From NCBI GenBank assembly GCA_965602015.1, contig OZ271918.1, positions 1,216,001 to 1,280,000 on the forward strand: 64,000 bases of DNA. Direction: 5' to 3'. This stretch comes from Salinispira sp. (lineage in GTDB: Bacteria > Spirochaetota > Spirochaetia > DSM-27196 > Salinispiraceae). Both the position numbers and the translations under genes were made by a program. This document shows, one piece after another, positions 1-19,524 of this stretch; position 1 is the first letter of the stretch; the number at the start of each line of letters is the position of its first letter. The notes beneath the pieces are model-generated. The model saw only the letters and a program-made list of their open reading frames with translations, was not told the origin of the DNA and did not search any database.

Positions 1-37
1 GCCTGAGGAGGGGAAAATCAGCTGTTTTGGGGGCACT
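1..37 (+). mobile_element. Right end (transposase stop codon plus terminal inverted repeat) of a second copy of the IS1/IS1595-like element found at 16916-18164
   Basis: GCCTGA..ATCAGCTGTTTTGGGGGCACT mirrors 18131-18164; 17-37 is the exact reverse complement of 16916-16936. Confidence 0.85.
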
Positions 38-14783: not shown

Positions 14784-15899
14784 ATGTCGACAATCAAATA
14801 TAACTTCGAAAAACTGATAGAGATTTTTCATTCCGTCCTGTGCCGATCAAAAGCCCTCCGGGCGGACCAATGGATTTATCACCTGATAATCAACCCCGGC
14901 GCCGGAGGATTTAATTTTGAAGGCATCCGTCAAAGCTTGGGGCGCAGCGAGCCAAAAGGCATTCGCATCCTGGATGAAACCAGCCGGGCGGCCATAGCCG
15001 GTCTGGATCCTTTATACAGTGCCCAGACTGTCGATATCCGGCTTCACCTGTCGGCATATCCCGATCACGCCGGCCTTCTGGCAAAAAGCATCGCGACGGA
15101 TTTTTATTCCGATGAGCGACGCCACATGATCATCAGTATCGGGGGGGACGGTACCCATAACGAAATTATGCAGGCCCTTCATACAGGTGTGAGCCAGTCA
15201 AAGTTGGCGCTTTGCCGGGTATTTCGCTTTCCCCTGGGCTCTGGCAACGACGGAGCCGATGCCTGGAAGCCGGAGGAAGCCTGGCAGCTGTTGATTGACG
15301 GTGCGGAACAGGGAAGGGCCGGGGCTTTGGAGATAAACAGCGCCGCTGGAGAGCAGTTTCACGCCTTTAATATTGCCAGCATCGGAGTTGACGCCCATAT
15401 CGTCAAAGTGACTAATCAGCTTAAAGACCGGCTTCCCGGTGATTTTTACAAGGTGGCCGCAGACCTCTCGGTCCCCTTCTATCCCGGTTTGTATCAGGTG
15501 GGTACCGCCCGCCTTTCCGGTGTGGATTTTGACGGTGAGCAGTTGGAGCACAGTTTCCGGCTGGGGCTGATAGCATTCGGGGTGAGCGGGATTCGAACCT
15601 ATGGTCACGGGTTGTGGATTCTCCCCGATCGGGAGAACATTTGCGCCATCGAACTGCGGAACCTTCTGACCAACATAAAAATGAAAAAGGAACTCTACCG
15701 CGCGAAACATGACCGATTGCCCTATGTTTCAATGTTCAGATCGGGAGACTTCACCTTTGAGTATGATTCTGCCATACCGATGGAACTGGACGGTGAAGTA
15801 AAAATGCTCTCGGCCGAGGATTTTCCCCTGTCCATACGGGTTATCGAGACGAATATACAGATGTACAGCGGAAAGGACCTGAGCGTCTATAAATCGTAG
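14784..15899 (+). CDS. Diacylglycerol kinase family lipid kinase
   Basis: IINPGAG, GGDGT, PLGSGND, ELDGE. Confidence 0.88.
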   Translation: MSTIKYNFEKLIEIFHSVLCRSKALRADQWIYHLIINPGAGGFNFEGIRQSLGRSEPKGIRILDETSRAAIAGLDPLYSAQTVDIRLHLSAYPDHAGLLAKSIATDFYSDERRHMIISIGGDGTHNEIMQALHTGVSQSKLALCRVFRFPLGSGNDGADAWKPEEAWQLLIDGAEQGRAGALEINSAAGEQFHAFNIASIGVDAHIVKVTNQLKDRLPGDFYKVAADLSVPFYPGLYQVGTARLSGVDFDGEQLEHSFRLGLIAFGVSGIRTYGHGLWILPDRENICAIELRNLLTNIKMKKELYRAKHDRLPYVSMFRSGDFTFEYDSAIPMELDGEVKMLSAEDFPLSIRVIETNIQMYSGKDLSVYKS

Positions 15900-16759
15900 T
15901 AGTGATGCTGCTTCACAAATCCCCTGAAGCCCGCGTCCATGACCTTTGATTCGTAGTTCATGTAATTGTCCGGATAGTGCATCAAAAAGGTCTTCGCGCG
16001 GATTTCCTGATGAAGGGTGCACAGATCGTCAAAAAACGCGTGGACTCCTCCGGGAAAAAACTGCACGTCGTGAAAGATGTGTTCGATGGGGTAGGTTTCG
16101 GTGATGTTTTCAATCATTTCCCGGTCGAATCGGGTATCGCCGGTAAACAGAATCCGCTTATCGATGATCAGCCCGGTGCTATACGCGCTGCGCTTCCAGC
16201 TCGGGGCATTGTCGGGGTAATGCATGGTGCGAAACAGCACTACGTTGAACCCCTTCCAGTCAATCTCCCAGGCGTCACGGTTCAAACTGCGCAGGCTTTT
16301 GGGACGGGTAACGTTCCAGTAATCCCGGAAATTCAGGAAGCGGTTGCCCTTTGATTCATTCCAGGCAGCTCCGCCCTTGAGGCTGTCATTCCACAGCAGC
16401 TTTTCGTATTCCTTGGTGATGACGATATTCGGTTTGCGCTTGGTGACATAGCGGCCCATGAGCAGAACCTCTTCAAGTCCGCCAATGTGGTCCGCATGCG
16501 AATGGGTAATGATGAAGTTTTCTATGTCCGTTACCGGCCTGCCGAGTTTTGACATTGCCTCGGGAGTGCGTGTTCCGCAATCGAGCATTATGTGCTGATC
16601 GCCCTTTATGAGCAGGTAATTATTCTGATAATGCTTCTTAGTGAATGCACTGCCGGTCCCCACCGGAAACAGGCTGGTTTCTCCGTTATTCGTCAGGCTG
16701 AGATCAGATGTTAGTTCGCGTATGTTCAAAAACGAATCCTTCAAAAACAAGCTGCACAA
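15887..16759 (-). CDS. Metallo-beta-lactamase fold hydrolase (phosphodiesterase/RNase Z-like); exact start uncertain
   Basis: GTGSAF, LDCG, THSHADHIGG, FTGDT, LMHY. Confidence 0.85.
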   Translation of the reverse strand: MCSLFLKDSFLNIRELTSDLSLTNNGETSLFPVGTGSAFTKKHYQNNYLLIKGDQHIMLDCGTRTPEAMSKLGRPVTDIENFIITHSHADHIGGLEEVLLMGRYVTKRKPNIVITKEYEKLLWNDSLKGGAAWNESKGNRFLNFRDYWNVTRPKSLRSLNRDAWEIDWKGFNVVLFRTMHYPDNAPSWKRSAYSTGLIIDKRILFTGDTRFDREMIENITETYPIEHIFHDVQFFPGGVHAFFDDLCTLHQEIRAKTFLMHYPDNYMNYESKVMDAGFRGFVKQHHYYDL

Positions 16760-16915
16760 AGATGTTTACCGGTGCGAATTGTATACCAGTATATGTTAAA
16801 TTTATTCAATTACCCAATACTTACCGTACAGTATAACCCGAAAGCAATAAAATCCAAATAAAAACGCGTGGGTGAAAATATAGAAATTCCCAGAAGTTTT
16901 TGCAAATTTTTCGTA

Positions 16916-18164
16916 AGTGCCCCCAAAACAGCTGATCGAATCAACATAACTCTTTTGCCAGTAGTCTTCTATGACACGATTACCAGTTCATAGGAGATTA
17001 GCATGGCATTAATCCCTCGTTTCTGTCCGTACTCGGACTGTTCTCAGCATCATCGCGACAGAGAATCAAGCCGGTGCTGGTTTGTCCGAAACGGCCACTA
17101 TCACTGCCGCCGCCTCGGTTCTTCCCAGCGCTATCGCTGCAAGCATTGCCGTCGATACTTCTGCGAAAGCGCGTTCCACCTCGATTATCGCGCACATCAT
17201 CGCCTCGATTACCGGCGCATCTTCTCTTCAATCAACTCGGCCTCCGGCATTCGCGATATTGCCCGGGAGTTTTATGTCACCGACAAGGTCATTCTCAATC
17301 GGCTGAGCCGATTGTCCCGTCAGGCAATCGCTGCCATGGCCCAGTTATCGAATGATCATACAATCGATGAGGATATTGCCGTTGATGGGTTTGAAAGCTT
17401 TGTGTATAGCCAATACTGGCCGAGCAACTTCACTCTCGCGGTGGGTTCCGACAGCCAGGTTGTCTATGCGTGCGACTATGCGCAGATGCGGCGTAAAGGG
17501 CGGATGACCCCCGCACAAAAGCGCCGGCGCGATGAGCTCAATCGCCAGTATCCTATTGCAGGGGGACAAATTGCGCGATCTTTCCGGGATGTGATGAATA
17601 CCATTCTTCCCCGATGGAAGGCTTATTCATCGAAGAGGCCATGCTATCTCTTGAGCGATGAAAAACTCGAATACCGCCGTGAGCTGTGCGCTCATCGGGA
17701 CTGGGCGGCGTTGGAAAATGCAGGGCGGGTTATCCATCACCGAACCTCATCAAGGGTGGTCAGGACCACTGAGAACCCCCTGTTTCCGGTGAATTACCTG
17801 GACCGGGAGATACGAAAGGATCAATCCTGTCATGTCCGCCAGAGCGTGCAGTGGTCAAAATCGGTGAACAACAGCATGGAGCGGATGATGATTTACATCG
17901 CCTATCATAACCTGCTCAAGCCGTATCGGATAAACGGACGAAACGATATCAGCCATGGTGAGGTTGCGGGGTTTGACCGAAGGCGGGTACTCACGTTGAC
18001 AAAAAGCATGTTTACACAGCGGGCCTTCGTTCATCATCTGGTGCTGGACATCAGCCAATGGAAGACCTGGCACCGGATCTGGAAGACGCCGGTGAGTGCG
18101 CTAAAGATCGACCTACCCGATTATGCGGTGGCCTGAGGGGCGGAAATCAGCTGTTTTGGGGGCA
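16916..18164 (+). mobile_element. IS1/IS1595-like insertion sequence; right IR interrupted by the IS1111-type element, with its last bases displaced to 19470-19471
   Basis: IRL AGTGCCCCCAAAACAGCTGAT 16916-16936; IRR ATCAGCTGTTTTGGGGGCA 18146-18164; one transposase-like ORF between them. Confidence 0.85.
17003..18136 (+). CDS. Transposase with Zn finger, HTH and RNase H-like DD(D/E) domain
   Basis: CPYSDC...QRYRCKHC Zn finger, GIRDIAREF HTH, VDGFES / LSDEK / NYLDREIR; flanked by IRs. Confidence 0.75.
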   Translation: MALIPRFCPYSDCSQHHRDRESSRCWFVRNGHYHCRRLGSSQRYRCKHCRRYFCESAFHLDYRAHHRLDYRRIFSSINSASGIRDIAREFYVTDKVILNRLSRLSRQAIAAMAQLSNDHTIDEDIAVDGFESFVYSQYWPSNFTLAVGSDSQVVYACDYAQMRRKGRMTPAQKRRRDELNRQYPIAGGQIARSFRDVMNTILPRWKAYSSKRPCYLLSDEKLEYRRELCAHRDWAALENAGRVIHHRTSSRVVRTTENPLFPVNYLDREIRKDQSCHVRQSVQWSKSVNNSMERMMIYIAYHNLLKPYRINGRNDISHGEVAGFDRRRVLTLTKSMFTQRAFVHHLVLDISQWKTWHRIWKTPVSALKIDLPDYAVA

Positions 18165-18190
18165 TATCTGAAAGCGGTGCCCCCCCGCAA

Positions 18191-18339
18191 GAGTTTTCAT
18201 TGTTCTATTACAAAAATTCTGCAAATCGGTTTTGTCCGAGTCATATCTCCGCCATCCACGTGGCATGAAAATGTCCTTCCAGGGGTGTCGCAATCACTTT
18301 GCACAGCCTCGTATTCGCGCTGTAGCCCCAAAAACGCGC
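18191..18339 (-). ncRNA. Predicted bridge/seek RNA of the IS1111-type element (boundaries approximate)
   Basis: Segments matching the target (18325-18335, 18295-18300) and the circular donor junction (18261-18270, 18241-18248), in loop-and-stem order. Confidence 0.75.
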
Positions 18340-19392
18340 TTACCCCTGTCTGGACAAACCCGCTAATGCAGGATCTTTGTAATGCTGTTCTTTCTGCAAT
18401 ATCCAAAATATTGCTTCTGCTAAGTGCCGTGCCACGGCGATTATTGCAACCTTATGATTACGTTTAGTACGAACTCTCTTGTAGAGTTTTACCGTATGTC
18501 GGTTCGCCCAATTTCTTTGATTAAGACAGGTTACATTAGCTGCTTCAGTAAGTGCCCACTTCAAGTATCGATTACATGCTTTCGATGTTCGACCATAATG
18601 AGTTTTACCTCCGCTCGAGTGAACGCGCGGCGTTGTACCACAGTATGATGCAAAATGTTCAGCGGTCTTAAAGCGATGTATGTCTCCAATTTCATGCACA
18701 ATGACTGCGCTGAGAATAAATCCGATCCCGGGAATGGATTTCACCAACTTCATTTCAGCATTTTCATCAAACGCTTCATGCATTCGTTGTTCGCAGTCGG
18801 TGATAGATTGCTTAATAAACGCGAGATTATCGAGCTTGAGTTTCATCATGGTGCGGGTATGCTCGGGGAGTTTTGGCATTACCTTCTTCATGGCTTCTGT
18901 ACCTGCTTTTCCGAACAGATCGCTCACATCATTGAATCGAAACCCATATTTCTCGAACCCGGCATGAATTTGGTTCTTTTCACGTATCAACTCCTGAACG
19001 AACTGCATCCGGGTTCGATAGAGTTCTCGTTTATCACGCAATTCTCCTGGTGGAATCCACACAGTAGGCAGTGTGCCTGCTTTTTGAAGTTTATTGAGAC
19101 CTTCAGCATCGAGTTTGTCAGTTTTGTTAAACATGGCCATCATCAATTTTGACTTACCGGCATGTACCAGCAAGGGGTTCATGCCGGCCTCCTCAATCTC
19201 ATCCACAATCCAGTACCAACTTCCGATCGTTTCAAGTGCGACTTCCTGTCCCGGCTCAAATTGTTGGAGAAAATCACGAATACACCCGTGAGAATGTTCT
19301 ATGCGCTGTGAGGATTTCCTTCCATTTTCGTCCTCAATTGCAGCCACGGTATACCGTTTATGGCTGTCGAGGGATATAATAGTATTACTCAT
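18340..19392 (-). CDS. IS110 family DEDD recombinase/transposase
   Basis: SLDSHK, ALETIG, KTDKLDA, SIPGIG, SYCGTTPRVHSSGGK (catalytic Ser), IAVARHL. Confidence 0.96.
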   Translation of the reverse strand: MSNTIISLDSHKRYTVAAIEDENGRKSSQRIEHSHGCIRDFLQQFEPGQEVALETIGSWYWIVDEIEEAGMNPLLVHAGKSKLMMAMFNKTDKLDAEGLNKLQKAGTLPTVWIPPGELRDKRELYRTRMQFVQELIREKNQIHAGFEKYGFRFNDVSDLFGKAGTEAMKKVMPKLPEHTRTMMKLKLDNLAFIKQSITDCEQRMHEAFDENAEMKLVKSIPGIGFILSAVIVHEIGDIHRFKTAEHFASYCGTTPRVHSSGGKTHYGRTSKACNRYLKWALTEAANVTCLNQRNWANRHTVKLYKRVRTKRNHKVAIIAVARHLAEAIFWILQKEQHYKDPALAGLSRQG

Positions 19393-19524
19393 TTGGTTGT
19401 CCTCCTCCGGTATTTAATATAGACCCTGACTGGCAGGATCTCGGGGGAGGCACCGCTTTCATACCATCACTTTCTGATTTCTTCCCCGTTGGCGGCGCTC
19501 TTCAACCCGTGATAGCATCGCTTT

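Follow-up and report, generated by a model that had tools for sequence, protein, structure and literature searches.

The window analysed here, a stretch of 64,000 nucleotides of a Salinispira genome (G000), contains two nested insertion sequences, an outer host IS related to IS1 and an inner element of the IS110 family inserted within a terminal repeat of its host. Our results indicate that the inner IS110 is very probably RNA-guided, its downstream guide RNA being programmed for the terminal repeat of the IS1-related element and of about 100 short derivatives.

The original prediction of a precise insertion into the end of another IS is borne out by the junctions. In silico excision of 18165-19469 joins ...ATCAGCTGTTTTGGGGGCA to CTTTCTG..., which matches the reverse complement of 16915-16936 at 22 of 22 positions, and a CA core is found on both junctions (18163-18164 and 19468-19469). 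The right inverted repeat of the 1.26-kb host IS is thus split as proposed, 5 bp from its tip, but the tips themselves had been placed two bases too far inwards and lie at 16913 and 19474; the two outermost bases of this host copy are mismatched between its ends. The features are collected in the table. Window positions 1-35 are the right end of another host IS copy; the left end of that copy lies just beyond the window and is likewise occupied by an inner IS110. Directly upstream of the nested elements lies a gene with a metallo-beta-lactamase fold (15887-16759), which scores 114 bits with the Pfam anti-Pycsar Apyc1 model (cut-off 50).

Table. Features of the nested elements, in positions of the window.
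Feature	Position	Strand	Remarks
Host IS, IS1-related, left tip to insertion point	16913..18164	+	tip placed by target duplications in other copies
Host IS left inverted repeat, 24 bp	16913..16936	+	inner 19 bp near-invariant, outer 3 bp vary among copies
Host transposase, 377 aa	17003..18136	+	Zn ribbon, HTH, integrase-type core with D128, D219, N264
Inner 19 bp of host IS right inverted repeat	18146..18164	+	CA core at end
Inner IS110-family element, IS1111-type build	18165..19469	-	1,305 bp (one core counted)
Inner IS110 right subterminal inverted repeat	18169..18186	-	18 nt, 94% complementary
Predicted bridge/seek RNA	18228..18360	-	starts within last codons of transposase gene
Predicted left donor guide AGATATGA	18241..18248	-	8/8 match to predicted circle junction
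Predicted right donor guide ACATTTTCA	18266..18274	-	imperfect: 5 Watson-Crick + 2 G-U pairs of 9 with left end (by eye); register from covariation
Predicted left target guide AAAG + core TG	18295..18300	-	
Predicted right target guide GTTTTTGGGGC	18325..18335	-	pairs with host-side flank; U faces C/G-variable host-repeat position
IS110-family DEDD recombinase, 350 aa, intact	18340..19392	-	NF033542, 227 bits, cut-off 140
Inner IS110 left subterminal inverted repeat	19444..19461	-	
Displaced 5-bp tip (CTTTC) of host IS right inverted repeat	19470..19474	+	

The genome, a single contig, contains 10 copies of the inner IS110 at nine independent sites. The motif GTTTT[G/C]GGGGCA lies beside one end in 8/10 copies and CT beside the other end in 10/10, so that the insertion site in the window is not a matter of chance; of the remaining two copies, one occupies a sister-family repeat and the other is the second unit of a tandem duplication. 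This duplication, at C1:3.40 Mb, comprises two copies that are identical at all 24 variable sites and have the same outer flank, and therefore counts as one insertion followed by duplication; it fits the one-sided boundary reuse described in the available text of bioRxiv 10.64898/2026.08.14.744561. Unrelated flanks would have spoken against a specific target, but alignment of the flanks of all genomic copies gave an inner flank GGGGCA and an outer flank CT at each of the nine independent sites, with the same insertion position and orientation and without added bases. The uninterrupted target is seen in empty repeats elsewhere in the genome. Three of the sites are ends of full-length host IS copies (two left, one right), four belong to derivatives that are short or unpaired, one is the sister-family repeat, whose partner repeat lies 110 bp away, and one (C1:331372) is a partial match with only 12 bp of the repeat. 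In two instances, identical inner IS110 alleles at the 24 variable sites are common to a host IS end and a short-element end. One inner IS110 copy is split by another multicopy element of 1.31 kb with TG...CA ends, present in 7 copies (G000:C1:1707043-1708352; 2613098), and a further copy of this element lies within a host-family repeat. Neither a circle nor an empty-site joint of the inner IS110 was found in the contigs of four sequencing runs of one sample, which is no evidence either way.

The recombinase belongs to the IS110 family: besides the match given in the table, PF01548 and PF02371 score above cut-off, and residues D9, E54, D92, D95 and the SSG motif are present. The behaviour of the element also agrees with this family, through one target, one orientation and a short common core at all nine sites, and through a predicted non-coding RNA with target and donor guides, which is supported by covariation and a consensus fold. 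An IS1111-type build had been proposed as well, and it stands. The subterminal inverted repeats are longer than the minimum for the IS1111 group (about 11-13 bp or more), perfect subterminal runs of 9-13 bp being found in 60/74 elements of the clade, the non-coding region is longer downstream than upstream of the gene (175 vs 77 bp), and the guide matching the top strand precedes that matching the bottom strand. The terminal extensions measure 8 and 4 bases to the first perfect pair; comparison with IS4321 suggests that the outermost pair is a mismatch, in which case they would measure 7 and 3. The IS1111 motif GL-P----S(t)G is absent from the recombinase, which has GTTPRVHSSG at this place (clade consensus GTTPRVHASG). 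We file the element as an IS1111-like member of the IS110 family, which would work like IS1111, but do not assign it to the core IS1111 clade. A promoter is predicted across its joined ends (TTGCGG-18-TATGAT, with a weak -35 box), and a TTGA/TTG(A/C)C hexamer occupies the junction -35 position in 80/83 relatives.

These relatives came from an alignment query, which fetched 160 loci at 47-56% identity; scans of genome and metagenome collections with the single protein returned none. No close relative of the inner IS110 was detected in 7 genomes of the same family, and 6/98 genomes of the order contain one at about 50-54% identity. The closest relatives of the recombinase, available as protein only, reach 60%. 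Among plasmids, haloarchaeal IS110 proteins match best, at about 31%, and a haloarchaeal IS110 protein scores 229 bits as compared with 90 bits for IS4321. A host-family gene adjoins the relative at 0/163 loci (the G000 locus being excluded), so the target appears peculiar to the lineage of the inner IS110 among the fetched relatives. Most relatives (loci L045-L203, from many phyla) target one class of repeat, (G/C)(C/G)AA-TG-AC, frequently where a hairpin repeat ends, and a few are reprogrammed onto unrelated targets.

The relatives also allowed the guides to be placed by covariation. A parsable RNA was obtained from 126 of 164 loci (the 160 and four further ones; the 38 without one were dropped), giving 95 distinct guide sets, or 94 without that of the inner IS110. 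In 80 elements, the four bases ahead of a conserved TGA agree with the left flank in 79, 72, 75 and 69 cases, respectively. In total, the left guide shows 354 matches to the left flank in these 80 relatives (permuted, 213+-8) and the right guide 328 matches to the right flank in 75 relatives (permuted, 228+-9), totals that were reached by 0/10,000 permutations. Because the relatives are kin and mostly have one target class, these permutation counts overstate independence, and the stronger evidence comes from the 13 relatives with atypical targets, in 12 of which both bases after the core match; the first two bases are identical in 96/111 parsed right flanks. As for the donor guides, the left one matches the element end at its variable position in 83/83 relatives, and the right one gives 310 matches vs 237+-7 on permutation. 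The sequence TTTCATGCCA was considered as right donor guide and rejected, its register not covarying. A consensus fold built from 46 of the 95 distinct RNAs shows two-sided changes in 19/27 pairs and places the guides within loops. The RNA of the inner IS110 alone folds no better than its shuffles (z=-0.8), and Rfam gave no match to it.

Read at the covariation-defined positions, which spell AAAG-TG-CCCC(A)AAAAC, the guides GTTTTTGGGGC (18335-18325) and AAAG-TG (18300-18295) predict the target AAAG-TG-CCCCAAAAAC on the sense strand of the inner element. The right guide matches 9/10 positions at 8 of the nine independent sites, where the sole miss is a position with C or G in the host repeats and U in the RNA, and 6/10 at the sister-family site. 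Over the nine sites the element's own guide matches 80/99 positions; the guides of 93 others reach at most 54, with a mean of 29. Unlike in most relatives, this right guide has no A to pair with the first core base, a variant found in 5/94, and the right donor guide pairs imperfectly. The predicted 16-mer has no perfect match anywhere in the genome, and 26 of the 29 sites within two mismatches of it lie in the host-family repeat. Repeats in which the left guide matches 3-4 of 4 bases are occupied more often than the rest (6/33 vs 1/90, p=0.0015; the threshold was set after the data were seen, and within CT ends p=0.028).

The pool of available targets is far wider than the host IS. The inner 19 bp of the repeat are found in 123 genomic copies, 44 inverted pairs and 35 unpaired repeats, and only 23 of them are full-length host IS ends, one more such end being a one-base variant missed by the repeat pattern. 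Of the pairs, 11 delimit full-length elements, 29 delimit elements of 133-145 bp and four form palindromes of 42-47 bp. Occupied and empty repeats were counted, as the original prediction had suggested for the host inverted repeats: 7/74 repeats followed by CT are occupied as compared with 0/49 others (p=0.025), and among CT-ending repeats full-length ends (3/23) and short ones (4/51) do not differ (p=0.67). The proposed specialisation on the ends of the resident family therefore holds as targeting of the terminal repeat but does not hold as a preference limited to full-length copies, since six of the nine independent insertions are elsewhere and only three are at full-length ends; it extends beyond the autonomous copies. 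The suggestion of a multicopy safe landing site is supported, 117/123 repeat cores lying outside ORFs of at least 150 aa, which cover 88% of the genome.

The short elements deserve a description of their own. They fold as long hairpins and show no 3-base periodicity. In 28 elements of 141-145 bp (e.g. G000:C1 34348-34490 and 277915-278057) the 19-bp ends are near-invariant, and the interiors, of about 105 bp, show no resemblance to that of the full-length host and have a median pairwise identity of 47%. The four near-perfect palindromes consist of two abutted host repeats (G000:C1:201919-201960, 400647-400688, 2356764-2356810 and 2681483-2681524), and near target duplications flank two of them. 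A sister host-family element, 35% identical and with related repeats, lies at G000:C1:2757300-2760735, where it is interrupted by a 2.2-kb element present at three other places in the genome; the sister family has about 22 repeats in the genome. Another genome of the genus (G001) contains 63 matches to the 19-bp repeat, mostly of the G variant, and a host transposase that is 60% identical; a PF02371 search detected no IS110 in this genome, which is 83% complete.

The host IS is present in 12 full-length copies, whose 12 genes all match the 377-aa protein over its full length. Target duplications of 8-10 bp (at most one mismatch), located 5 bp outside TG...CA, were found at 8/44 paired ends vs 0.33 expected, a number reached by 0/2000 permutations; exact-match tests gave almost none, and the duplications appeared once one mismatch at offset 5 was allowed. 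Given this offset and the alignment of the ends with those of a fetched IS1A, the host repeat is 24 bp long, and the inner IS110 severs its outer 5 bp. The outer 3 bp are variable, and even copies with target duplications on either side differ in them from one end to the other (in the 23 full-length ends of G000 and in loci L222-L229 of the genome G002), and the tip variants CTTCA (7 times) and CTTTC (7 times) each occur at left and right ends alike. Shuffling of flanks between host IS copies was considered and is not supported.

The label "IS1-like" given to this host was right as to relatedness and too generous as to membership, the score being far below the cut-off of the IS1 family (35 vs 100 bits). 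No Pfam match to the host protein was above cut-off, and the element falls below every IS family cut-off tested. The IS1 model matches 92/109 host homologues weakly at E<=0.001 (best E 1.4e-11), and in a two-sequence search the host-family profile recovers E. coli InsA (E=5e-11), but InsB gave no significant match. The host IS resembles the IS1 family in its Zn ribbon and HTH, which are N-terminal and homologous to InsA, in its short terminal repeats, in its ends, in its integrase-type fold and in its target duplication in AT-rich DNA, which was seen at the 8/44 paired ends only. Target duplications in the IS1 family range from 8 to 11 bp. Its single 377-aa frame, the variable outer 3 bp and the residue N264, at the presumed place of the third acidic residue, set it apart from that family. 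The predicted structure (pLDDT 92.7) compares equally in Z score with the ISCth4 transposase (Z 11.5, rmsd 6.7, 229 aligned) and with RSV integrase (Z 11.5, rmsd 3.0, 148 aligned). D128 and D219 are invariant among the 109 homologues, N264 and D267 are conserved in at least 90%, and the helix with N264 and D267 has no conserved glutamate; judged by spacing, N264 would take the place of the expected third acidic residue. Some transposases of the IS1595 family have N as third residue. The host family is present in 30/61 genomes searched, that of the window included; the few homologues named by NCBI are from spirochaetes, and none was found among 72,556 plasmids.

By analogy with studied members, the inner IS110 would be excised as a circle, its guide RNA would be transcribed from the joined ends of that circle, and pairing of the RNA with both DNA strands would precede recombination at the TG core. 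The gain for the element would be an abundant site outside genes. An occupied host end is severed from its outer 5 bp and probably unusable meanwhile, which would be a side effect and would not serve to control the host family. Since cleavage by DDE transposases takes place at the tip of their element, immobilisation of the occupied host copies is plausible.

A more far-reaching possibility is that the inner IS110 is a dedicated parasite of the autonomous host IS, with a guide taken from and tuned to the full-length tip, which acts as a brake on the spread of the family. We consider this unlikely, even though the insertion does part the host tip from the inner repeat and a perfect left-guide match (4/4) occurs at 7/23 full-length ends vs 0/100 short-element ends. 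Only 3/12 full-length copies are occupied, each at a single end and all with intact genes; well-matching ends are occupied at 3/20 in full-length elements and at 3/13 in short ones; and the relatives' loci show no adjoining host-family gene, as described above. Moreover, the block on the host end may be reversible, as IS621 rejoined its site upon excision, at a low rate (PMC13626964, in the text available), although no rejoined site was detected after excision of ISEc11 (PMC11187229, likewise).

It is still less probable that recognition of the repeat, or of its hairpin, lies with the recombinase protein itself, or that host transposase already bound there recruits this protein, the RNA match being secondary. 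The full 19-bp repeat, which extends beyond the reach of the guide, is present at 7/9 sites, and the hairpins of the short elements would suit such recognition. Against it, all 65 genomic AGTGCCCCNAAAA sites lie within the repeat, so that the guide alone accounts for the clustering; two sites lack the inner part of the repeat; guide and target covary across the clade; and RNA was required in the members studied in the available part of PMC11187229. That a single ancient insertion was carried along with its host as a composite, or that the copies are assembly artefacts, can hardly be maintained: two host copies do carry a left-end insertion with similar outer flanks, but the three occupied host copies are 37-60 bases apart and hold three different inner alleles, in contradiction with such spread by the allele table, six sites are outside full-length hosts, and the outer junction with the window's flank is present in contigs of public runs (one sample, which may be the source).

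We thus retain the reading of an RNA-guided element programmed for the terminal repeat, which agrees with the proposed site-specific insertion, the uniform junctions and the covarying guides. A broader version of it can be put forward only tentatively, and we doubt that all its parts hold together: the guide would derive from a captured tip sequence of the autonomous host, with a single U opposite C/G covering both alleles of the repeat as well as the sister family; the host would be an undescribed IS1-related family with a D-D-N core and with no constraint on its outermost bases; the bridge RNA would have been reprogrammed recently from the usual repeat of the clade; and the result would be a natural, reversible, RNA-guided off-switch on a transposon family.

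This case reveals no new mechanism. Its value lies in a natural bridge-RNA system, cleanly decoded, whose recombinase belongs to a clade for which no close named member was found; all four guides are placed by covariation, and the nine independent insertions reveal the tolerated mismatches. It also draws attention to an IS1-related family that is widespread and unnamed and has unusual ends. In the literature searched (subscription papers, ISFinder and some supplements being outside its scope), we found no description of the target of the inner IS110 and no immobilisation test. No close named relative of the element was found, and 4/5 clade motifs are absent from the source-data file available with PMC11187229.

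Among known systems, one close in habit is IS1383, an IS1111-family element for which IS1384 inverted repeats serve as target in Pseudomonas putida (Muller et al. 2001, cited in PMC11208160). Compared by description only, both are IS1111-type elements with the inverted repeat of another insertion sequence as specific target; they differ in that the inner IS110 has as its host an IS1-related family that is unnamed and includes about 100 ends of short derivatives. IS4321 and IS5075 target the terminal repeats of the Tn21 family (Partridge and Hall 2003, cited in PMC11208160) and likewise have subterminal repeats, a long downstream non-coding region and the end of a mobile element as site. The fetched IS4321 copy has the same 7+3-base end geometry if the outermost repeat pair of the inner IS110 is a mismatch, but the recombinases are only about 24% identical, with GTTP...SSG in the inner IS110 and GLVP...STG in IS4321, and the target is another. 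ISEc21 targets genes of the IS3 family (PMC11187229). In the parts available, the order with the top-strand match first is described for IS1111 elements in PMC11187229 and their donor guides in a multi-loop in PMC11208160. The predicted RNA resembles the seekRNA of ISEc11, ISKpn4 and ISPa11 (PMC11187229) and the bridge RNA of IS621 (PMC11208160) in its downstream location, in the top-strand match ahead of the bottom-strand match and in the donor guides within a multi-loop; ISPa11 and IS621 also target repeats outside genes (PMC11187229, PMC11208160). Targeting of mobile-element ends by IS1111-type elements is thus already in print, with IS4321/IS5075 and IS1383, and the inner IS110 is a further case in which RNA-guided IS elements exploit the ends of other mobile elements as renewable, gene-free sites; what is new here is that the target belongs to an IS1-related family, unnamed and variable at its tips, and that the guide is fully readable.
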